Shown here: positions 3,393-64,000 of the stretch, piece by piece
How positions within the stretch are numbered: the stretch's first letter is position 1
Layout of the letters: every line of letters begins with the position of its first letter
Notes under the pieces: generated by a model
What the model saw: the letters and a program-made list of their open reading frames with translations, nothing else
What the model was told of the DNA's origin: nothing
Databases searched by the model: none
Made by a program: the position numbers and the translations under genes
Assembly: GCA_038087875.1 (NCBI GenBank)
Contig: CM075996.1
Span: forward strand, 4,652,001 to 4,716,000
Length of the DNA stretch: 64,000 bases
Direction: 5' to 3'
From: Malacoraja senta
Taxonomy: Eukaryota

Positions 3393-3609
3393 AAGAATGA
3401 ACTGCAGATGCTGGAAAAATCGAAGGTAGACAAAAATGCTGGAGAAACACAGCGGGTGAGGCAGCATCTATGGGGCGAAGCTTTTTTCTTCTTCCCGTCC
3501 CCCAACCCCACATCAGTCTGAAGAAGGGTCTCGACCCGAAACGTCACCTATTCCTTCGCTCCATAGATGCTGCCTCACCTGCTGAGTTTCTCCAGCATTT
3601 TTGTCTACC
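3393..3609. mobile_element. Penelope-tail mini-element with inverted arms
   Basis: Arms at about 3425-3480 and 3554-3609 are reverse complements. Hammerhead-like core at 3518-3545. 16-bp TSD tgcagaatga(c/t)tgttt at 3377-3392 and 3610-3625. Confidence 0.9.
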
Positions 3610-4769
3610 TGCAGAATGATTGTTTGTGGTGGCGAAACGGGATGGACGGTAAGAATAACTTCCTTAAAGGTATTTGGGCAATAATTTTGATAATGGTCAA
3701 AGGAATGTTGATAGAGTTGCTGAATTTTGCTATTCAGTTAAATTTATTAGAGAGGCGTGAAGTGATCCCTTGACAAAGTTAGCATTTGACTGAGTGTGGC
3801 ATTGGAGCTTTGGTGAAATTGAACTCATTGGTAATTAAGGGGAAAGGTTTCCATTGCCCAGTCATATCTAGCCTAAAGGAAGATAATTGTGGTCAATCAT
3901 TTCACTCAAAACATCATTCACACTCTTCAGAGCAGGGTCCTAAACTCAACTATAGGTCAGAACAGTAGGTACTAGAAGATTTTCAACTGTGATAAATAAG
4001 TCTGAACTTCCAAAAAGAACTGCACTTGCTAGGTATCTCAGAAAAATTGAAAAAGCTAGAAACACTCGTGGTCAGTCAGCACTCATGAAACGAGATAGAG
4101 ATAATGTTTCAGGCTAAAGATCCGAAGACCAATCTTCAATAAGTCTTTGACCTGCATGCTAGAATAAATAGCCAGTTTTGGGTTAGCCTGGCAGATGAAA
4201 AATGACGTTGACTCCAAATTGACTCCAAATGTTCTGGGCAATGATCACCTCCAGTAAGAGAGTTTAACCACATTCCTTTGCAAGTCCTCCAATATTTACA
4301 TCCTAGGGGAGGGAAACAAAATCAATCTCAAACTTAACTGGATAAGTCACATAAATATAGATACAAAGTGCTGGAGTAACTTTGCAGGTCAGGCAGCATC
4401 TCTGGAGTACATGGATAGGTGACATTTTGGGTCGGGACCCTTCAGACTGGTTGAACTGAGTTTGCAGTTACGCATGTCTGAATACATAAATACTGTGGCT
4501 ACAAGAGAAACCAGAAATTGGGCTCCTTGCATTTTAGTGAGTCAGCACCTGATTCGCCAACGCCTATCCACTCTGTACAAGGTATGTGCTAGCTGTGGAC
4601 ATGAGTGCAGATTCAATGCTGATGCTCAGTAAATCAGGATTGATCAGGAGAAAGCAGCTTGATTGATTGTCATCTAATCTTTCAATTTAAACATTAATTT
4701 GTCAATTACAACATTCTGTTGAAACATTATCAATCATTTCAAAGTTACACTGCAGCAACATTCGTTCAC

Positions 4770-6514: not shown

Positions 6515-7531
6515 GTAAGAAATATAAACATTTTATTTATTATAAGTAAATTAATTATTTTTAATACGCTGGATTTCTTGAGCAAAGACAGTTAAAAATT
6601 ATGAATGGTTTTATGAACCAAATACTGAGAAAATATTTCCATTGGTAGAGGGATGGTGACCAGAAAACACAAATTTAAGGTAGCCAAAAACAAACTGCTG
6701 GAGGAACTCAGTAGGTGAGGCAGCACCTTTGAAGGCAAAATTGACATTTCAAGTTGAGATCCTTCATCTGGACTGAAAGAGTAGAGGGATAATACCAGTA
6801 CAAAGAGATGAGGGGAATGGATTGGGCAAGAGCTGGCAAGCAATAGAAGAATCCAGGTGAAGGGTTATATCATACAGAAACAGGCCTTTCGGCCCCTCGT
6901 CCATGCAGACTAAGGTACTCCATCTAAGCCAGTCTCATTAGCCTACATTTGGCCCATATCGCTTTGAACCTTTCTTATCCATGTGCTTATTCAATAGAGG
7001 CAGTGCATCTCACCTAATGTCACTGCAGTAAATGAAAATTTGAAATATATCACTCGTCAGTTGTTGCTACCTTGAATGACCTGGAGGATAGGAAGTTCAG
7101 GTACTGATTTTTACAGGGTCAGGAATCTGGCTGTTGTACTGCATGTGAAAGGCTTCAGAAAGTTTGAGATCTCTATGTGTGTGCTTGAACAGATTTCTGG
7201 AATTGATAGGCAGAAATGTGTATCTGATCTGTATTGGTCCATAAGCATGTCAATTTTGCCTTCAATATGCCTGACTTGCAAATGCAGTTCACAACAGCAC
7301 CCGATGTAAAGCAGAGAAGAAGTTCAAAAGTAGCAGTGCATGTCACCTAATGTCACTGCAGGAGCTTTCTTATTAGAAAACTGCAGAAGTGTGCGTCATG
7401 AGTATGAGTGGCTTCTTATTCACACATTTAAATGAGTACTTTGTGGAAGTTCTATGATTCAGACATTCAGAGACATGGCCTGCAAAGATTGACTGAAAGT
7501 GCCTGGTTTTATTTCCCAAACTACAACTCAA

Positions 7532-7678
7532 AGCAAAGAACCATGTATTTTCATTTTCTCAAAAAAACATTGATTTTCAATTGTATTATTGCTTAAAAAT
7601 TTAGCAAAGAACCATGTATTTTCATTTTCTCAAAAAAAACATTGATTTTCAATTGTATTATTGCTTAAAAATTTAGCA
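7532..7678. repeat. two-copy 71/72-bp tandem duplication
   Basis: agcaaagaaccatgtattttc...gcttaaaaattt is repeated at 7532 and 7603, differing only in A-run length. Confidence 0.95.
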
Positions 7679-15724: not shown

Positions 15725-17103
15725 GTAAGTAACAATCATTATTGCTTGTTATAAGAAATTTGTTTGCTCTAATCAGCAACAAGTGCTGAAGATGATCTTG
15801 CTTTTTATTAATGTCCCAGTTTTTAGCATCAACTGATATCTGGACTGAATTATAATTAGGCTTATTGCTATTTTTTTATAATTTCAGAATCAGACCGGAA
15901 ATTGCATAGATTTTAAATGTCAGTGGAAGAAATCCTATGTCTCTTTTCCCAATTCACTTTGACCTTTCAATATCTCAGCTACCCAACCTATAGACCTCCA
16001 TTTGCTACATTTCTCTACCCACTAATATACTTACCCAAATGATTACTACCATTATTGATCTCTAGTTTCTTCTTTCCTGGGAGATGTTAAAAAGGGTACA
16101 GAAAGGGGGAATACAAGTTGCATATTTCCAATGCTGCATTTAAAGTCCTGGTGAAAATGAGGTAAGTTATCTAGTATTTGCAAATATAAAAGAATCCTCC
16201 TACAGTGGATGGAGATACTTGTGGCTCATAATGCTAGAGAGTCATCCTGAAGACCTGTATACAGAGCGTAAAAGTTGTTAGGATCAGCAAATGCATCTTC
16301 AGATGCCAATTATCACCAACTGCACAGCAAATCTCTGATACTACATTGTGCACTACACTCACTAACCAATGATCCCAATCAAGACTTATGATAAATTGAG
16401 AATTAGATGCTGTAGCACACCTCCATCCAAACCTTATATCTGTATTTTGCAGCCTCCATATATTGCCAGCTATTTCAAGACAAATATATGACCCAAGCAT
16501 ATTATGTGATACCGACACACTCCCTCTCACTTGCAAGACAAGGTATACAGCAGCAGGTAATTCATAGGGAGCAGGCTAGATTCCATTACCCAATATATGA
16601 GGCAGTAACATCATCATTGAAATGGTCGTTGTTGACTCCTTATCAGCATTGGTTGTAAAAACTATTTTAAAATTATGGTATTCTCAGTTTCTAGTTTTCC
16701 TTTCCACAATCTGAAGACTAAATGAAGGTCTGAGGGGTACATTTTCTTTACACAGGGTGGTGAATATTTACAACGTTTAAAAGGTTTTGGAAAGTACTTG
16801 GATAGGAAAGTTGTAGAGGGATAGACACAAAATGCTGGAGTAACTCTGCGGGACAGGCAGCATCTCTGAAGATGGCTCACCCATTCCTTCTAACCAGAGA
16901 TGCTGCCTGTCCCACTTAAATACTCCAGCACTTTGCGTCTATCTTCGGTGTAAACCAGCATCTGCAGTTCCTACACAAATTGTCTTCAAGATTTCTTCAG
17001 ACTTACGTTTTTTTTTGGTAAACCAGCATGTGCAGTTCTTTGGTACACAAAAATGCTGGAGAAACTCAGCGGGTGCAGCAGCATCCATGGAGCGAAGGAA
17101 ATA

Positions 17104-17137
17104 GGTAACGTTTCGGGCCGAAACCCTTCTTCAGACT
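17104..17137 (-). ncRNA. minimal type I hammerhead-like motif in the Penelope tail
   Basis: Minus strand reads agt-CTGAAGA-a-ggg-tttcgg-ccc-GAAA-cg-TT-ac: conserved core boxes, a short stem II and a palindromic AACGTT stem III. Stem I is very short, so activity is unproven. Confidence 0.6.
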
Positions 17138-17250
17138 GATAGGGGGTGGGGAGAAGAAAGGAAAAAAGGAAAAGGCGGAGGAGGAGCCCGAGGGCTGGGG
17201 GAGGGGAGGAGACAACCAGATGGCTGATGAAGGGGAGGGGACAGCCAGGG

Positions 17251-18708
17251 CTAGCAGAATTGGGAGAATTCAACGTTCAGGCCACCAGGATGTAGACTGC
17301 CCAAGCGGAATATGAGGTGCATTTCCTCCAATTTACGGTGTTGCTCGCTGTGGCCATGGAGGAGACCCAGGACAGAGAGGTCAGATACGGAATGGGAGGG
17401 GGAGTTGAAGTGCTGAGCCACCGGGAGTTCAGGTTGGTTATTGCGGACCGACCGGAGGTGTTCGGCGAAACGATCGCCAAGCCTCCGCTTGGTCTCACCG
17501 ATGTAGATCAGCTGGCATCCAGAGCAGCGAATGCAATAGATGAGGTTGGAGGAGATGCAGGTGAACCTCTGTCGCACCTGGAACGACTGCTTGGGTCCTT
17601 GAATGGAGTGGAGGGGGGAAGTGAAGGGACAAGTGTTGCATCTCTTGCGGTTGCAAGGGAAAGTACCAGGGGAGGGGGTGGTATGGGAGGGAAGGGAAGA
17701 ATTGACAAGGGAGTTACGGAGGGAGCGGTCTTTGCGGAAGGCAGACATAGGGGGAGATGGGAAGATGTGGCGAGTGGTGGGGTCACGTTGGAGGTGGCGA
17801 AACTGACGGAGGATCACTTGTTGTATGTGACGGCTGGTGGGGTGAAAGGTGAGGACTAGGGGGACTCTGCCTTTGTTGTGAGTGGGGGGATGGGGAGAGA
17901 GAGCAGTGTTGCGGGGTATGGCAGAGACCCTGGTGCGAGCCTCATCTATGGTGGAGGAGGGGAACCCCGGTTCCCTGAAGAATGAGGACATTTCAGATGC
18001 CCTGGTGTGGAACGCCTCATCCTGGGAGCAGATGCGGCGTAGACGGAGGAATTGGGAGTGGGGGATGGAGTCCTTACAGGAAGCAGGGTGGGAAGAAGTG
18101 TAGTCCAGATAGCCATGGGAGTCGGTAGGTTTGTAGTGGATGTCGGTAAGGAGTCTATCACCTGCGATGGAGATAGTGAGGTCAAGGAATGGTAGGGAAG
18201 TGTCGGAAATGGTCCAGGTGTATTTGAGTGCCGGATGGAAGTGGGTGGTGAAGCGGATGAAGTCAGTCAGTTGTGTGTGGGTGCAGGATGTGGCACCAAA
18301 ACAATCATCGATGTAGCGGAGGTAGAGGTCGGGGATGGGGCCCTGGTACGCATTGAACAAGGATTGTTCTACGTACCCGACAAAGAGGCAGGCGTAGCTG
18401 GGGCCCATGCGTGTGCCCATAGCTACGCCTTGTATTTGGAGAAAATGGGAGGAGTCAAATGAAAAGTTATTGAGTGTAAGTACCAGCTCCGCTAGGCGGA
18501 GGAGGGTGTCAGTGGCCGGGTATAGATTGCTTCTACGGTTGAGGAAAAAACGGAGGGCTTTGAGACCATCCTGGTGGGGGATGGAGGTGTACAGTGACTG
18601 GACGTCCATGGTGAAGATGAGGGGGTGAGGGCCTAGAGAGTGGAATGCGCGGAGATGACGAAGAGTGTCTGAGGTGTCTTGAACATAGGTGGGGAGGGAT
18701 TTAACCAA
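17251..18708 (-). CDS. Penelope-like reverse transcriptase + GIY-YIG endonuclease (N-terminally truncated, 485 aa open)
   Basis: RT motifs TMDVQSLYTSIP, QGVAMGTRMGPSYA, YLRYIDD, LPFLD, HYKPTD; linker CNRKRCNTC; endonuclease NLIYCIRCSGC..YIGET..RL..RF.EH...HF...E...GLN. Confidence 0.93.
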   Translation of the reverse strand: MVKSLPTYVQDTSDTLRHLRAFHSLGPHPLIFTMDVQSLYTSIPHQDGLKALRFFLNRRSNLYPATDTLLRLAELVLTLNNFSFDSSHFLQIQGVAMGTRMGPSYACLFVGYVEQSLFNAYQGPIPDLYLRYIDDCFGATSCTHTQLTDFIRFTTHFHPALKYTWTISDTSLPFLDLTISIAGDRLLTDIHYKPTDSHGYLDYTSSHPASCKDSIPHSQFLRLRRICSQDEAFHTRASEMSSFFREPGFPSSTIDEARTRVSAIPRNTALSPHPPTHNKGRVPLVLTFHPTSRHIQQVILRQFRHLQRDPTTRHIFPSPPMSAFRKDRSLRNSLVNSSLPSHTTPSPGTFPCNRKRCNTCPFTSPLHSIQGPKQSFQVRQRFTCISSNLIYCIRCSGCQLIYIGETKRRLGDRFAEHLRSVRNNQPELPVAQHFNSPSHSVSDLSVLGLLHGHSEQHRKLEEMHLIFRLGSLHPGGLNVEFSQFC

Positions 18709-18839
18709 GGGGGATAGTATGGAGCTGTGCAGTTCTTTGTTTCTACACTAACTTTAGCAAAGCTTGCACAGAGCTTGAAGCTCATCCTTGCTAGCATGGA
18801 AATGGTGGATAGCTCATGAGCTCATTTATGGACAAATTA

Positions 18840-19064
18840 AGGGCCTGTCCCACTTGGCGATTTTTTCCGGCGACTGCCGGCGTCATATCAGTGTCGCCAA
18901 AAGATTTTGAACATTTCAAAATCCAGCGGCGACAAAAAAATGTTGCGATACTTGAAAAAACAGCGCGCGTCAGACGTCATCACGCTACAAATTTTTCAGT
19001 GACCTGATACGTCAGTTAATGATGCTGGCAGCCGCCGAAACAATCGCCAAGTGGGACAGGCCCT
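18840..19064. mobile_element. PIF/Harbinger-like MITE
   Basis: TIR agggcctgtcccacttggcgatt / aatcgccaagtgggacaggccct; 3-bp TSD TTA. Confidence 0.85.
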
Positions 19065-19729
19065 TTATTCGTCACCTGATGTCTTCTTCCGTGAAGCACA
19101 AACAAAAGAGACACTAAGTCAGCTCTCTGGAGGAACTGGTGCAACTCTGTACCAGTTACGTTGTTACCTTTGTGGCTTTGCATACAAATGTTGACAAGGA
19201 CTTGCAATGTGTTATGAACTGTTGCAATCTATCTGCCCGCAGATTCCTGGGATTGTTGAAGCATTATCCCAGGGAGGAGATAGTGGAACATCAAGTGGAA
19301 GTAAATCGTCCTTTATCTTTGGAAAAATGTTGAACAGATAGACATCTAACCGGCTTTGAATGCTGATTGGCATAATGATCTATCCACTCTGCATATTTCC
19401 AACGCATGTTAGCTGTGTAACTTCATCAGAATAGCAACAGATTGTGCCACAACTTTTTCCCTGTACGTTGGCAATAATAATTTCCAGGGTTTAAATTATA
19501 AACATAGCAATACAGATTTAAAAGAATGAATCAACAATAATATATTCTTACACTTTCTGCAAATAATTTTATTTGCATAAACTATTATACAATTTTGAAA
19601 TGTAATAGTATACTTAATTTTTAATATACTGAAGTAAAAAATATTAACAAAACTGATTTATGGTAGTCTGTTGCCAAGCCTTGGTGAGATATGTATATTT
19701 AATATTTTGCAGTTCAAGTTGGATTAGAG

Positions 19730-41535: not shown

Positions 41536-41714
41536 CAAGAAGGAACTGCAGATGCTGGAAAATCGAAGGTAGTCAAAATTGCTGGCGAAACTCAACGGGT
41601 GCGGCAGCATCTATAGAGCGAAGGAAATAGGCAACGTTTCGGGCCGAAACGTTGCCTATTTCCTTCGCTCCATAGATGCTACCGCACCTGCTGAGTTTCG
41701 CCAGCAATTTTGAC
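41536..41714. mobile_element. palindromic Penelope-tail mini-element
   Basis: 73-bp arms (41570-41642 / 41644-41716) centred on tttcgg-g-ccgaaa; TSD (c)taacgtgtatatgtt at 41520-41535 and 41714-41729. Confidence 0.92.
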
Positions 41715-42489
41715 TAACGTGTATATGTTATCTATAAGCTCACAAAGACTTTTATTGTAGGAGATGGCAATATCATGATGTATGCCTTGTGAAATGTTAA
41801 TATCTAAAAAGGAAACAGTTACCGGTGCTGCTTTCATTAATTCCAAGTTGATAAACAGTGCCAATCTTTAATTTGTGAATTAGACGTATGAAGAAGATGA
41901 CAGATTCAAGCTCACCAGATTTCCTGCAGAGATCTGCCTGATGCTCCTCAACCCCAACTACTCTGAGCTCATCTGTGTCTCTTGCCACATGACGATTATG
42001 TTCTTACACCTGGAAACATTTGATATTAGTGCTTGATTTATTACGGTCACATGTGTGGATAACACCACATTGCAATTTCCATTATCAGTAAATATTTTTC
42101 ACAAGAAAATGTCGCTTTTTCATCCTCATCAGCAATATGCTCCCATGCCTCCAGTGATGTATTGGCACTTCAGGAAAAGAAGATAAGAATGGGAGATGGA
42201 AAATAAAGAAAACTTGTGATTGAGTGAATCTTTACAGGATAGCTATGTTAGCTGCACAGAACAGGAGAGATTAAAGATTAAAATTAAACATATGTGATGG
42301 AACAAGATAATAGAGGTGAATTTGCCAGAGGAATAGTGAGAAATCGATGTATGATTTTAAGTTTGGGGCAAGAGTGTCTGCAGTGACTGGTGGGGTGAAT
42401 TATGTAGAACAGGTCAGGGAATTTCATTAAGGTGAAAGGTGTTGTCATCTCTTGGGTCATATTTTCATTCAGACTGCGATGAGAATGGA

Positions 42490-45824: not shown

Positions 45825-46871
45825 ATTTAAGCTGAAGATAGACACAAAAAGCTGGAGTAAGTCAGCGGGACAGGCAGCACCTCTGGAGAGAAGGAATGGG
45901 TGACGTTTCAGGTCTTGACCCTATACAGATTTATATATATATGCTGACCTTTGGATTCTTATGTAACCTAATCCCATTTACCACCACTTAGCTTGTGCCA
46001 ATTCTGCCTTAGTCAATGCAGATGCTTGTCCAAATGCTCCTGAGATTTTGTGCGAGTATCTTCGTCTACACCTTATCAGGCGGTGCCTTCCAGGTTGCAA
46101 ACACCTACTGAAAAAGTTATTTCAGTGATCCCCACCATTACTCTCACTCCTCATTTTAAACTTGTGCCCTTAGATCTTAGAGATGTTTAGTTTATTTATT
46201 GTCGCATGTACTGAGGTACAGTGAAAAGACTTCCACCATGTGGAAAAGTATTATAATAGCTACCCAATTCATGCCGTTCATATATACCTCTATCAGATCC
46301 ATCACCCACCCACTGCTGCAAAGAACATAAGCCCAGCCTATCATAGCTGTAACATTGCATCGCACTCTATCTACATGTGCTGCACCTTCAGGGATATTTG
46401 GGCTTGTATACCTAGGTCCCCGGGGTCAAGGAAAGAGCGTTCACGTCACGGCCCTGTTTCCACCAATCTTTCCACCACCACGCACAAGAAGTGACACAAA
46501 GTGCAAGACAGACACCATTGTAGCCAGATGCCGAGAAGTGTGTTCAGCTCTGGCTGAACAAGTTCTAATCTTGTGTGTGGATTCGATAAGACCTAGGTCC
46601 CTATGTTCCTCAATGGTCCTTGGAGCTCGACCATTCATGGAATATGTGCGCAATTTTACATGCGTAAGGCTAATTCTACTGTATGCAATGATAACACAAG
46701 ATTTATTAGGAAAACAACTATTGTGTTATCAATGAACTACCTGCAGCTTTAGACTATAGAATGATATTAACTGGTGAGTTGGGCAGGGCAATGGCAGATG
46801 CATTCCTCTCGTTATAAAGCCAATTGAATGAATGGGGAGAGAGCTTCAGGAGCTAGAGAGTTTCATACTTA

Positions 46872-47067
46872 AGGGTCTGTCCCACTTTCACAACCTAATT
46901 CACGACCTCTGCCGAGTTTGCCCTTGACATACTCGCAGCATGGTCGACAGTAGGTCGTAGCAGGTCATGATGCTAGTCGTAGGTACTCGTGGCATCAAGT
47001 AGGTCGGGCGTTTTTCTAGCATGATGAAAAAGGTCGTGAATTAGGTCGTGAAAGTGGGACAGGCCCT
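46872..47067. mobile_element. PIF/Harbinger-like MITE
   Basis: Long TIRs agggtctgtcccactttcacaacctaattcacgacct / aggtcgtgaattaggtcgtgaaagtgggacaggccct; TSD TTA. Confidence 0.88.
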
Positions 47068-47460
47068 TTAGAATAACAATGTTACCTTTCCGACAGGATT
47101 ATTTTTAAATGGTATTTTTGCAATGTTTATTTTTAATATAGGGTAAACAATATAAAAGGTTGTACTCTACATTGTTTAATAGAATATTATTGCACAAATG
47201 TCATTAAAAGCAAATGCTTATCAATTTCCATGGCCATCTGTTGTTAAAGTAGCAACTGAGTTTGATTACTGTGGGAAGATTACATAGAAACCTTTGTCCC
47301 TTGTGCTGTTTAAATCAAAGACAGTTTTTTTACTGTTACTTTTCAAAGTAACTTTTATGTGGTTCTATAGTTCCCACATGAAATAACTTAAGAAACATTT
47401 TGGCCCTTATAATCTAAAAAAAGTTTCCAAATTTATGGTCGACATTCAAGAATGGGTCGA

Positions 47461-54489: not shown

Positions 54490-54565
54490 GAGCTTCCAGT
54501 GTTAAAGCGTTACTGCTTCTTTGCATTCAAATTAAGTTTGCTGGAGGACATCGAATATTATTATT

Positions 54566-55180
54566 GGTGGCACAGTGGTACAGCTGGTAGAGCTTCTGCC
54601 TCGCATCACCAGAGGACAGGCTTCAATCCTGACCTCGGATGCTGTCCGTGTGGAGTTTGCACGTTCTCCCCCCCCCCCCCCCCCCCCGTGACCACATGGC
54701 TCCGGTTTTCCTCCCACATCCCAAAGACATGCGGGGTTGTAGGTTCAAGAAGGAACTGCAGATGCTGGAGAATCGAAGGTAGACAAAAGTGCTGGAGAAA
54801 CTCAGCGGGTGCGGCAGCATCTATGGAGCGAAGGTAATAGGCGACGTTTTTCGGGCCGAAACCCTTCTTCAGACATCTGTTTTTATACATGCATAGATGG
54901 ATACACACTGCTAGATACACAAATACACGGATTTGAATGGTACACAAACATATTCTGACATGAAGACACAGAGATAAAATATGCATTGATACTATTGACA
55001 TAAGTATCCACATACATGCGGGGCTGTAGGTTAATCGGCCCTCTGTAAATTGCCCCTAGTGTGTAGGGAGTGGATGTGAAAATGAGATAACATGGAACCA
55101 GCATGAAGAGGTGAATGATGATCGGCATGGACTTGGTGGGCTGAAGGGTCTGTTTCCCTGCTGTATCTTTCAATTAAAAC
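54566..55180 (+). mobile_element. V-SINE interrupted by a Penelope-tail insertion (54746-55013)
   Basis: ggtggcacagtggtacagctggtagagc head, V-domain and CR1 tail; 19-bp TSD acatgcggggYtgtaggtt at 54727-54745 and 55014-55032. Confidence 0.88.
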
Positions 55181-56822
55181 TATTTAGCAACTAGGAATTA
55201 GCTTCCACAAGCAAATTGTCATTTGAATCATTAATTCGTGGTTCACCACAGAGAACGGATTGGGTGTGGGTGGAGAAGGAATATGAATAGACCCTTGCAA
55301 TCTAGGGTTTGGCCAAATAGGGACTTGGTCGTGAAATGTTTCAAAAGATCAATCTGAAATATTTTTGTTTTTAATTTTGAGTCTGTGGGCACGACAGACA
55401 AGGCCATTACTAATGTTTTTGTCCTCCGGGAAGAGTATGTGATACAATGTGCCACTGAAGGAGTTAATGCTGATTTGCTTTCCTGTTCACCAGAACCCCT
55501 GATCCACCCTTCTCTGCTTTTTAAACCACAAGATGAAGATGTGGTCCAACTGAGAGAAACCCATCATCCCTGCTTCCTCTGATATGTCAGAACAACGGCG
55601 TGAATACTGGACCGACAGCACGCAGTGTTCAATGAACAAAAGGGTGAGGGAAGTGTTGGTATTCTGAGAGAGATGGAAGCTTGTTGCGTTTGAAGGGCTC
55701 TATCACGGGGATTTGTTGGAACTTGCAGACTCTTGGCTGAGTGGATTCTGATTCCTTGGCGAACACTCACTGATTGTAAGTTGGAATGTGAAGCTGTCGT
55801 TCCTATTGTGCTTATTATTTTCCAATGTCGTTTTCATAAGCAGAATTACTAATTTTCTATTTATATTTACAATTTAAAATGATTTCCATTATTGTTTGAA
55901 TCCATGTTTCCTTTAATGTATGTGGATACTTATGTCTGTTTCATAATAGTATCAATGCATATTTTATCTCTGTGTCTTCATGTCAGAATATGTTTGTGTA
56001 CCATTCAAATCTGTGTATTTGTGTATCGAGCAGTGTGTATCCATCTATGCATGTATAAAAACAGATATCTGTCCGCATGCATCTATAGATTTGTATCTAT
56101 ATGGATGAGACCATCAGTATATGTATAAGTATTTGCATCAGTAGTTATATAATTTGAAATGTGTGCATTGCCCTGTGTGTTTTGGAAGAATATATGATAT
56201 CTACGCAGTGATTATAACTCAAGTGTAAAAACGTGAAAAATTTATACAAAATTTAAATTGTCGGTATTAAAAAATTAAAGCATGGATCCAAAGGGCAAGA
56301 AATGCTTAGGTAGATACAGCCACATTACCAGCTGGGAAGTTAAACGTGATAAAATAATAATTAGATTAGATTCAGAGTAGATCAACATTTAATGATAGGA
56401 TTGTGGAAAAAATGACAATGGAAAAAAATGAAAAATTGAACAGCAAATATACTATTATTGAGCACATAAGTGTTCCTCAACTGCAATTTATTCCTTTAAA
56501 GCTCTCTTAGTGATACATGTACCTGTGGTAACTGAATATCTGGGTTCTGGCTGTAAAGGATGTGCCTTGGTTTTTACTAAGCTGTGATAATAGTTTCAGC
56601 AAGATAGCTGGAGGCTCCGGTGTAAGACATTGGCTGGACCTGAGGAGCAGGTCCCCAGCCTGTCCTCACCTCTGCTTAAGTTTGCTGTTTGCTGAGATGA
56701 GAATAATGCTTCTTCTTCTTGCGAATGAAACATAAACCAAAGGAATAGTTAGATCTCAAGCCGGGTGTTGAGCAGCCAGGTTGTTGTCTCTGTTGGCGTC
56801 AATGTCTGCCAGGCCCTGAGCT

Positions 56823-56940
56823 CCAGGGGGCGGAGATCCCAGGGGGGACAGGGGGGACACGCCCCCCTCTGTTTTGAGAGGTGGGGGCCGATCCCCCCCC
56901 CCCCCCATTTTTTGTGATCCGGATTTTAAAACCCGGTGAA
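56823..56940. mobile_element. possible hAT-like element terminus
   Basis: cagggggcggagatcccaggggggacaggggggac...ccccc pattern; no partner TIR found. Confidence 0.3.
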
Positions 56941-57243
56941 ATCTCCGCTTTGCGCGAGACTGGGGGTGGGACTGCTGATCGAGTTGGACAAGAGAGACAT
57001 CGGTCAGCAGGCAATGGGGGCGGGACATAATGATTCAGCGCGGTGATTGGAGGAGGGAGATGTGGCACAGGATGTGGCCTCATCCACAGCCAGCATCGAT
57101 CCCGGCCGGCTCTCCGGCGCTGTCCCGTCCCCACGCGAGTGCCCCCCCCCACGCCCGGGGATGGCCAGAGATGTCGGGAATCAGACGGGTGTGGTGCCCC
57201 CAGGCCCACAGCCAACGCAGAGAAGCAGCGCTAAACCCAGCTC

Positions 57244-57392
57244 AACTCTGCCTGTCCCGCCAGGTTAACCTACAGCCCTGCCTGGACCTGCGGGAAATAT
57301 GGCCCAGGCTTACAGCCAGCGCGGAGAAGCAGTGCTGGTGTCCCGTCAGTCCAGGCAGGGCTGTAGGTTAACCCGGCGGGACAGGCAGAGTT
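57244..57392. repeat. 149-bp foldback with 44-bp inverted arms
   Basis: aactctgcctgtcccgccaggttaacctacagccctgcctggac (57244-57287) pairs with 57349-57392 with one mismatch. Confidence 0.9.
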
Positions 57393-58698: not shown

Positions 58699-59210
58699 TC
58701 TATCTTTACAGGCGTCCACTAATCCATTGATTTTAATTTGTTTAAAAAAATTAAAATAAAAATAAAAAGATTTTAATTTGTTGTCCAAATTAACATAATT
58801 GTTTAATTAACCTCCTTTATATGCCACAAACAAGGCTTTTGTCTGAGTTGTCTGCTGATGAATATTGGAAAATCACGCTTGACAACAGGATGGGTCCCTG
58901 GATTTCTTGTCGCCTTTCAAAAGAAACCATGATATTGAAATGTTTTAATGTACAAAACAAGCAATAAATGAGTGTCGTCAAGTCCATGCAGAAGGCAGCT
59001 TTTATTATTTTATACTTTCCATTTTATACTGCTCTCCTGAATGTCAATAAATTCTTGATTTCAACAACTTGTCAGAGGCGGTGAGATGAGCTGGCCAATT
59101 AATTTTACAGAAGCTCCATATGTGTGAAACATTGCAAGTGAGCGCAGTTACAAGAATCTCTCACATGCTGGCAACTTTGTCCCACCCAGGAGTCTGCCCT
59201 GACCCTCTAA

Positions 59211-59527
59211 TAGCCCTGTCCCACGGTACGAGTTCATTCCAAGATAAAAAAAATCCAACTCGTGGTAAGCACGGAGAATGAACGTAGCGGGTACGTCGGA
59301 GCTCGGGGACGTCCCTTAGCGGCTCGTAACGCTAACGGCAGGTACTCGGGAAGACTCGCTAACGGCAGGTAAGCACGGGAAGACTTGTGAAGATTTTTCG
59401 ACATGTTGATAAATGTCCACGAGAGCCCCGAGTACCGACGAGTGGCCATTACCGTAAATCTCCGAGTTCGAATCAGGGCAAACTCGGGAGAGCTCTTGGA
59501 ATGAATTCGTACCGTGGGACAGGGCTT
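59211..59527. mobile_element. PIF/Harbinger-like MITE
   Basis: TIR agccctgtcccacggtacgagttcattccaaga / tcttggaatgaattcgtaccgtgggacagggct; TSD TAA. Confidence 0.88.
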
Positions 59528-59713
59528 TAAGCCTTTATCTCGGGGAACTTGCTTACATAGGCACTGAGGGAGACCTTGTCAACCAAAATAAGTAGGCAAC
59601 AGAAAGCAAAAATTTTGATCATGTTATTGTCTATTTAAATTTTGTTGTTTTATCTCTTTACAGAATTTCATCAGCCATTGCGTCTTTAAAACCTCCTCCT
59701 CCTCGACAACAAC

Positions 59714-60060
59714 ATGGCGGACGACTGGAAGGTCTCTGAAAGCCTTGATTTTAGGCCCGGTAGCTTCATAGTTCCAGTCATCTTTTCGCTGATATTCCTT
59801 CTTGGGACTGTGGGGAATGGCCTGGTCCTGGCGGTGTTACTAAGGAAAGGACAGACAAGCTACAGCACAACCAACCTCTTTATCTTAAACCTCAGCATAG
59901 CTGACCTCTTCTTCATCGTCTTCTGCGTCCCCTTTCAAGCCACTATCTACATGCTGGATGGGTGGCTGTTTGGCTCCTTCATGTGTAAAATGGTCCACTT
60001 TTTCATCTACCTCACCATGTATGCCAGCAGCTTCACGCTGGCTGCTGTATCTGTTGACAG
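59714..60060 (+). CDS. GALR3: galanin/spexin receptor, GALR3-like (GALR2/3 family), first coding exon (N-terminus to TM3)
   Basis: MADDW...[18 protein letters not shown]...[14 protein letters not shown]...CVPFQATIY...[18 protein letters not shown](R)|gtaagc. A phase-2 intron in the DRY arginine codon is typical of GALR2/GALR3. GNGLVL, TMYASS and SVDR match GALR3 better than GALR2. Good Kozak context aacATGG, in-frame TAA at 59687 and upstream acceptor tttacag at 59663. Confidence 0.85.
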
Positions 60061-60194
60061 GTAAGCCCATTCACAAGCCCATTTTGTCAGGACTTTTGTC
60101 GGGTCAGGTGGAACAGAAATAACTTTCAGAGAACAACCAGCTGTTAATCCCTGTCAAGCATTTACTCCCCGACATGGTATCTGCAGAGAGGCCA

Positions 60195-60578
60195 GAAACA
60201 GCGGGTGAGGCAGCATCTATGGAGCGAAGGAAATAGGCAACGTTTCGGGTCGAAACCCTTCTTCAGACTGATGTAGATTGGGTGGGGGGGGGGGGGGGGA
60301 TGGGGAGAAGAAAGGAGAAAGGAAGAGGAGGAGCCAGAGGGCTGAGGGAGAGCTGAGAAGGGGAGGAGACAGCAAGGGCTACCGGAAATTGGAGAAGTCA
60401 ATGTTACCGGAAATTGGAGAAGTCAATGGAAATAGGCAATGCTTCAGGTCGAAACCCTTCTTCAGACCCAAAACGTTCCCTATTTCCTTCGCTCCATAGA
60501 TGCTGCCTCACCCACTGAGTTTCTCCAGCATTTATGTCTACCTTCGATTTTCCAGCATCTGCAGTTCCTTCTTAAACA
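60195..60578. mobile_element. composite Penelope-tail insertion (minus, minus, plus segments)
   Basis: Minus-strand tail + UTR, a 24-bp tandem duplication at the junction, a second minus-strand hammerhead segment, then a plus-strand tail ending gcagttccttcttaaac. Confidence 0.85.
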
Positions 60579-63127: not shown

Positions 63128-63775
63128 GGACACAAATTGCTGGAGTAACTCAGGCGGCATCTCTGGAGAGAAGGAATGGGTGACGTTTCGGGTCGAGACC
63201 CTTCTTCAGACTGAGAGTTAGGGGAGAGGGACACTAGAGATAGGACGACAGGTGGCGCAATGGGCTAAGTGTTCGGCTGGCAACCGGAAGGTAGCCGGTT
63301 CGAATCCCGCTTGGAGTGCATACTGTCGTTGTGTCCTTGGGCAAGACACTTCACCCACCTTTGCCTGCGTGTGAATGTGTGTGAATGTGTGTGAGTGATT
63401 GGTGGTGGTCGGAGGGGCCGTAGGCGCAGATTAGCAGCCACGCTTCCGTCAGTCTGCCCCAGGGCAGCTGTGGCTACAGAAGTAGCTCACCACCACCGAG
63501 TGTGACTGAGGAGTGAATGAATAATGCGATGTAAAGCGCCTTGAGTATTAGAAAGGCGCTATATAAATCCCATCCATTATTATTATTATTAAGGTAGACA
63601 CAAAAAGCTGGCGTAACTCAGCGGGACAGCATCTCTGGAGAGAAGGGATGACTGAAGAAGGGTCTCGACCCGAAACGCCACACATTCCTTCTCTCCAGAG
63701 ATGCTGCCCGTCCCGCTGAGTTACTCCAGCATTTTCTGTCTATCTTCGGTGTAAAACTGCAGTTCCTTCCTACGC
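63128..63775. mobile_element. Penelope-tail fragments in both orientations, flanking a SINE
   Basis: Minus tail at 63128-63240; inverted-arm copy at 63591-63772 with ctgaagaagggtctcgacccgaaac. Confidence 0.8.
63245..63590 (+). mobile_element. tRNA-derived SINE with a CORE-like domain and L2-type tail
   Basis: A box tggcgcaatgg, B box ggttcgaatccc, tgtgtccttgggcaagacactt, tail tgtaaagcgccttgagtattagaaaggcgctatataaat and (att)n. Confidence 0.85.
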
Positions 63776-64000
63776 ACAACGCCAGCACAGTTTGTTCTCT
63801 CTGAGAAACATCCTGAGACAGAAGCCAAAACCCTTTTATGTTTACACACTAGACCACGGATTGAAACCCCAATGGAATTGTTGATGGAGTCCATTGACCC
63901 ACCGGCCTGCTCTGGTCCAGAGAAAAAAAAACATTTGAAGTAGACTACATCATCTTGTTGGAACTGACAGTGCCGTGGGAGGACCGTCTGGAGGAGGCCC

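Follow-up and report, generated by a model that had tools for sequence, protein, structure and literature searches.

The window, that is, the whole stretch of DNA that was analysed, comprises 64,000 nucleotides of the genome of Malacoraja senta. Toward its right-hand end is the first coding exon of a GALR2-like gene (59714-60064, with the ATG at 59714), whose product matched galanin receptor type 2 with an E value of 3e-43, as against 7e-31 for type 1. An insertion and the host sequence from which part of it was copied are situated 3.6 to 5.0 kb upstream of that exon, as an earlier note on this DNA had stated. The insertion consists of a 19-bp target-site duplication (TSD) that encloses a 129-bp arm derived from a Penelope-like element and a 143-bp filler of host DNA. 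Coordinates are collected in Table 1. The exon is mentioned as context only: nothing in the data links it to the insertion, and they neither show nor predict an effect on the galanin receptor gene.

Table 1. Features of the insertion, its target and its donor, with positions in the window
Feature	Position	Strand	Remarks
Host SINE, left half (start approximate)	54566-54745	+	Alignment to three uninterrupted window copies
TSD, left copy	54727-54745	+	19 bp; 15 bp without the 4-nt overlap
Penelope-like pLTR/tail arm, 5'-truncated	54746-54874	-	129 bp; 91-92% to nearest window copies
Optional 'tail' at 3' end of arm	54746-54777	-	32 nt; missing from second arm of two-armed copies 3610 and 41716
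Hammerhead-like core (CUGAAGA, stem II, GAAA)	54843-54872	-	Alignment; 2 extra A in this copy
Left junction microhomology	54870-54874	.	4 matches, 54870-54873 with 56068-56071; mismatch at 54874 (donor 56067)
Filler, inverted copy of 55916-56066	54875-55017	-	143 bp; 2 substitutions, 8-bp deletion
Right junction microhomology	55008-55017	+	4 nt exact (55014-55017); 8/10 with 54721-54730
TSD, right copy	55014-55032	+	18/19 match to left copy
Host SINE, right half (end approximate)	55033-55180	+	Alignment to window copies
Donor, intact, ancestral copy	55916-56066	+	883 bp past right TSD
Perfect 12-bp palindrome	56061-56072	.	Centred on donor breakpoint 56066|56067; within looser inverted repeat 56043-56090

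The earlier note had described a minus-strand Penelope tail, joined to a reverse complement of nearby DNA and set within a V-SINE between TSD copies that differ at one position, with a 4-nt overlap (acat) of filler and TSD. It is apparent from Table 1 that the two TSD copies, the inverted relationship and the overlap, at 55014-55017, are all present. The arm is identified as a Penelope tail by the BLAST family to which it belongs and by a 91% match to the end of a copy that encodes RT and GIY-YIG domains. The host repeat is a dispersed SINE-like repeat, as alignment to copies in the window and the public contigs indicate, and a candidate member of V-SINE/HE1. ARAGORN called no tRNA at the host SINE. 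A poly-C run within it (54668-54687) is longer than in its paralogues.

In the SINE paralogues of the window, and in the SINE consensus of the public runs where that was listed, the motif duplicated in the TSD is present once. When TSDs were searched for within 2 kb, the one described here received a score of 16; all of 60 random positions stayed below 13. The target sequence ends in gtt/ttt ahead of the arm, and the same is true of four other insertions of the Penelope-like family.

The differences between filler and donor are substitutions at 54913 and 54929 and the absence from the filler of the 8 bp at 55937-55944. In a BLAST search of the window with the filler as query, the donor (E=5e-61) was the sole non-self match below E=0.98. 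The exact inverted match at the filler edge is 38 nt long; none of 300 random 40-mers has one of at least 30 nt within 3 kb. The donor region as a whole is not unusually stable, as 16% of 896 tiles fold equally well.

A public-run search listed 24 runs, with a share of 0.84 for the best-matching run (X24) and of under 0.2 for the other 23. Contigs of four of these runs (X1, X8, X10 and X24) were aligned on 54490-55915. X24 may be the source sample of the window, so that it tests the assembly rather than the population. The X1 contigs leave the unique flank uncovered, and the X10 contig covers 55153-55903 only, with no piece over the filler centre; gaps in cover of this kind carry no weight as evidence.

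One X24 contig piece of 80 nt (54967-55046) shows no differences. It opens with the first 31-mer that is specific to the filler, carries the filler's deletion of 8 bp and continues into the TSD. Under a rule of 31 letters on each side, this piece suffices at 55013|55014 (47/33) and falls short at 55017|55018 (51/29) and at the deletion (30/50). It and one other X24 piece each overlap a third piece (54870-54996) by 30 nt, and a fork of this kind requires two real copies of the sequence. The piece over 54870-54996 has one difference and then runs on for 663 nt off the stretch, a continuation that is read as the right flank of the donor. Among the pieces listed, none spans the left junction, between arm and filler; graph pruning beside a very high-copy repeat could account for this.

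X8 represents a different organism, with 54 differences in 852 nt. One of its contigs spans 55064-55915 and runs directly into the donor, and for this reason the donor at 55916 is the ancestral copy. The X8 donor has the window's donor allele at 54929, and its length (148 versus 143 nt, with 11 gap letters) fits the presence of the 8 bp. These data fit a loss of the 8 bp on the filler side. The same contig is unbroken across 55915|55916, the site of the X24 fork, which hints that the relative does not have the duplicate, contigs being able to show presence and not absence. The divergence of filler from donor, 2 in 143 (95% interval 0.2-5%), and that from this relative, approximately 6%, have intervals that barely overlap. 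This difference suggests, but does not establish, a younger event. The orthologous empty site is bridged by no listed contig in any of the four runs. Contig joints that skip the SINE were considered as candidates for it and were rejected, as they derive from paralogues.

It had been recognized in the earlier note that the filler might itself be a dispersed repeat or a part of the element consensus. Neither is the case. The filler is low-copy, with summed depths over 54922-54969 of 25.5, 0.77, 11 and 0 in the four runs, versus more than 1 million over the arm, and the element consensus beyond the core departs from the filler in 4/4 runs.

The arm had 25 BLAST matches in the window, itself included, and it is 91% identical over 97 bp to the 3' end of a longer family copy (17042-18725). 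That copy is 5'-truncated, has a 14-bp TSD and contains an open frame of approximately 497 aa (ORF 17251-18747) that encodes an RT followed by a C-terminal GIY-YIG. The matches of this ORF to RVT_1 (E=1.4e-5) and to GIY-YIG (E=2.5e-3, or 5e-4 for the C-terminal part) are both below the Pfam curated cut-offs, and its best Atlas cluster (0.97) is annotated GIY-YIG/HTH/RT. The arm would thus be assigned to a family of EN+ Penelope-like elements of the Penelope/Poseidon type, the combination of RT and GIY-YIG being found in the family and not in the fragment.

Head-to-head copies occur in the window at 3393-3610, 16820-16980, 41536-41716, 60428-60574 and 63591-63776. Two of these two-armed insertions, 3393-3610 and 41536-41713, have 16-bp TSDs and carry the tail on one arm only. 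This arrangement fits a protein with two internal start sites that is able to cut and extend each strand. An optional tail extension is a described feature of Penelope-like elements (PMC8557442, PMC11167929). In vitro, a protein of the Poseidon type cuts the two strands and extends each of them, and the same report states that the steps past first-strand synthesis are unvalidated for Penelope-like elements (PMC11167929).

Thirteen matches to the hammerhead-like core were found in the window, of which two (16865 and 34900) were dropped as spurious. The core motifs and stem II are kept across the 11 copies that were aligned, and a putative cleavage site would lie at approximately 54843. Rfam gave no hammerhead match to the core, and for the whole window it gave none of any kind at the gathering threshold and three weak, unrelated matches at E values of up to 10. 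The MFE fold is not hammerhead-shaped in three of four copies, and the fourth shows stem II only; minimal hammerheads of Penelope-like elements are described as having no stable helix III (PMC4209133).

The observation in the earlier note that the arm stops at this core proved to be not only true but recurrent. Five of the 11 core-bearing arms end 0-2 nt from one point (54874, 60467, 60969, 60978 and 63652, two of which share one junction), and the remaining six extend upstream beyond it. In other organisms the same point is rejoined to the tail start in 2 of the 12 junction rows listed from public runs. Self-cleavage was considered as the maker of this 5' end and was rejected, because the stop lies approximately 32 nt 5' of the putative cleavage site and the core is retained in the arm. 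Purely as a hypothesis, the common stop may represent run-off of the cDNA at the RNA 5' end; TCAGT, upstream of the stop point, resembles an initiator. Insertion in vitro proceeds without ribozyme cleavage (PMC11167929).

Both ends of the filler show short microhomologies (Table 1). The features of these junctions were chosen after the sequence had been seen, so that the frequencies given here describe them and do not test them. The 8/10 match at the right junction crosses the left edge of the TSD; comparable sites number two in the 2 kb rightward and none in the 2 kb leftward, and the window as a whole has 26 when both strands are counted. The 12-bp palindrome at the donor breakpoint is the sole perfect one in 55033-57000, as compared with 18 in 63,800 window positions. 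The X8 alignment ends at 54875 and not at 54870, and this relative may therefore differ where the left microhomology lies.

A single insertion event, in the course of which a local template was copied, very probably accounts for these observations, because the TSD is flush with both parts of the insertion, the target is typical of the family and the arm stops at the family's common 5' point. This much of the inference drawn in the earlier note is borne out by the flush TSD, the microhomology at both donor ends, the ancestral donor and the low-copy, non-consensus filler.

We give an even chance to a route in which the second target end folds back onto its own resected arm and copies local DNA. 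The TSD shows that the SINE was cut with a stagger of approximately 19 nt, presumably by the element endonuclease. The top-strand 3' end would then have primed reverse transcription at the tail, as family knowledge suggests, to yield the observed 129-nt product, which halts at the family stop point. The second 3' end, which seems to be the primer of the tail-less inverted arm in the sister copies, would next have folded onto the resected arm and paired there, at 55916, over 4 nt; from this primer it would have copied 151 nt of host sequence, with 8 nt lost then or later. The new strand would have been freed at the palindrome 56061-56072 and paired over 4 nt with the cDNA end, after which the second strand would have been completed; gap filling would have kept the donor intact. 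The polymerase may have been a host end-joining polymerase or the element RT, between which the sequence does not distinguish.

Several features argue for fold-back. The donor is inverted and lies on the reciprocal arm, as expected after ordinary 5' resection, and in each priming step the 3' end pairs perfectly over 4 nt. The TSD is flush with the 3' end of the arm and with the far end of the filler. The sister two-armed copies with 16-bp TSDs (3393-3610 and 41536-41713) are also in keeping with this route. Against it, a resection of approximately 1 kb must be assumed. The other three TSDs measure 14, 16 and 16 bp, and with a stagger of 15 nt at the present site the second end would lack the 4 nt from which it primes. 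The point at which the X8 alignment stops, together with the left junction and the empty site, neither of which any listed contig spans, also weighs against this reading.

The 8/10 match is a further difficulty for fold-back, since the product retains the donor letters there. This is more directly suited to a second route within the same event, in which the cDNA 3' end jumps to the DNA of the donor + strand, copies leftward and anneals to the target overhang. Such a route appears rather unlikely. The breakpoint at the palindrome tip speaks for it, as the template would be a donor strand that was displaced, invaded or nicked at that tip. There are also precedents: in R2 'snap-back' junctions the cDNA 3' end primes on the cDNA and, less often, on nearby rDNA (PMC11371274, PMC11331408), and one report refers to an SDSA-like model for the templated insertions of L1 (bioRxiv 10.1101/2024.08.27.596794). 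The cDNA would, however, have had to prime from a 3'-terminal mismatch (54874), and resection removes the + strand of that arm, so that a special source of single-stranded template is required.

It is improbable that, within the same event, the RT switched to, or was primed on, a local RNA (of the + strand, in the sense of GALR2, or antisense for the second end). Template switching and twin priming of the L1 RT onto other RNAs have been documented (PMC13174262), and a + strand RNA as template would give the filler the same sense as the RNA of the element. The donor, however, lies 3.6 kb upstream of the ATG, and its location within 1 kb of the insertion is unexplained unless the RNA was nascent.

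A similarly small probability is assigned to two events, an ordinary insertion followed by an unrelated templated repair of a break at the 5' junction, possibly with replacement of the second arm. Unrelated local duplications do occur in the window (7532-7678; 44681-44943/45565-45828), and head-to-head arms are palindromic and could break. The limits of such a repair must nevertheless have coincided precisely with the TSD edge and with the 5' stop point common in the family, and the TSD must have remained whole.

A chimeric join in the assembly is very improbable: the left junction is absent from the listed contig pieces and X24 is possibly the window's own sample, but filler and donor differ at two sites and by 8 bp, the difference-free X24 piece 54967-55046 enters the TSD, the fork requires two real copies, and a TSD that fits the family target pattern is atypical of a misjoin.

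Insertions templated by polymerase theta have short microhomologies at both ends and include inverted copies taken from a resected flank, as is seen here. The usual cases are shorter and nearer than 151 nt from 0.9 kb, and the present one is tied to a TSD-bounded retro-insertion.

Two kinds of L1 insertion have been reported, each in three examples: those with inversions near the site and those with templated genomic sequence (PMC11702581, Figs S9C, S10). One of the former, the inverted duplication in Fig. S9C, was ascribed to fold-back of the reciprocal end (PMC11702581). In tumours, 22 templated L1 insertions are described, typically of less than 250 bp and from within 15 bp of the site (bioRxiv 10.1101/2024.08.27.596794). 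Like the present case, each of these L1 insertions combines a truncated retro-copy with a short duplicate of DNA from the vicinity, and the donor is kept. They differ in that they are somatic or from cell lines, whereas the insertion considered here is an inherited genomic copy of a GIY-YIG Penelope-like element without poly(A); the donor, moreover, is 883 bp away, unlike those of the tumour cases. A fish LINE with extra 5' nucleotides has also been described (PMC2666801).

The R2 'snap-back' 5' junctions resemble the present case in having reverse-complemented nearby DNA between the cDNA end and the target (PMC11371274, PMC11331408). They concern engineered transgenes at a fixed rDNA site, and are read as priming by the cDNA end, mostly on the cDNA itself, in contrast to what is proposed here. 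Canonical EN+ Penelope/Poseidon insertions have a TSD, a tail at one end, 5' truncation, a pLTR with a hammerhead-like core and an inverted second arm (PMC8557442, PMC3846280, PMC11167929). All of these are found at the present locus, except that host DNA from the flank, and not element sequence, makes up the inverted second arm. The host captures described for Adineta lie between pLTRs and, in the text available, are not traced to the adjacent flank, unlike the filler here.

The insertion would be placed with those whose TPRT 5' junction is locally templated: a retro-copy and a non-element filler are enclosed in one TSD, a nearby ancestral donor is retained, and the filler is low-copy and departs from the element consensus. 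A literature search that covered few subscription journals disclosed no Penelope-like insertion with its adjoining flank copied into it in inverted orientation. The outcome is already known for L1 and R2; as far as was searched, the novelty is confined to the element class, and it is a single instance.

The earlier note had proposed that these elements generate local inverted duplications in general, which is not supported by the window. Host filler is present in one of the four TSD-bounded copies, and a long inverted local match was found at one of the 48 edges of 24 family blocks, which include a few body fragments or a poly-C false match. Three other matches were left out of the TSD count: a 27-bp 'TSD' (10269/10836) that is part of an older tandem duplication, a 10-bp match (60811/60945) that is within the null (6/60 reach a score of 10), and a match at 44.9k/45.8k that belongs to a longer duplication.

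A model for the lineage may be put forward tentatively, and is doubtful. Synthesis of short Penelope cDNAs would end by run-off at a fixed 5' terminus of the RNA, which would lie immediately upstream of the hammerhead core and may be the transcription start. The other target end would then need a template, usually element RNA, which would give an inverted arm, and at an appreciable rate host DNA within approximately 1 kb, with copying ending at hairpin-prone sites. If this model were true, the tail copies, which are very abundant, would give rise to small inverted duplications of local DNA throughout the genome, and would preserve a fossil record of the way in which Penelope-like elements complete their integration. 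A second arm of unique host DNA reveals priming sites and an orientation that are hidden by element-on-element palindromes. As a single locus, the insertion is a minor case of a repair outcome that was already known.

Other features of the window were noted. A 264-bp direct duplication (44681-44943/45565-45828; 97% identity, 622 bp apart) contains approximately 240 bp of host DNA and the first 24 nt of a tail arm, and is probably a later local copy. An older tandem duplication (10219-10471/10798-10924; 82-90%) has a tail arm in its first copy; as the arm was inserted in that copy, the second shows the empty site. A near-perfect 71-bp tandem duplication is located at 7532-7678 and a 39-bp direct repeat at 6990/7323. 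Three short MITE-like elements (18820-19075, 46860-47075 and 59205-59530) have related terminal inverted repeats. Approximately 2.4 kb upstream of the GALR2-like ATG is a GC-rich segment (57199-57392) with a 52-bp inverted repeat (92%) and a 34-bp direct repeat. Finally, ARAGORN called a tRNA-Ala(GGC) at 63245-63319, adjoining a tail arm; this tRNA could be the head of a SINE.
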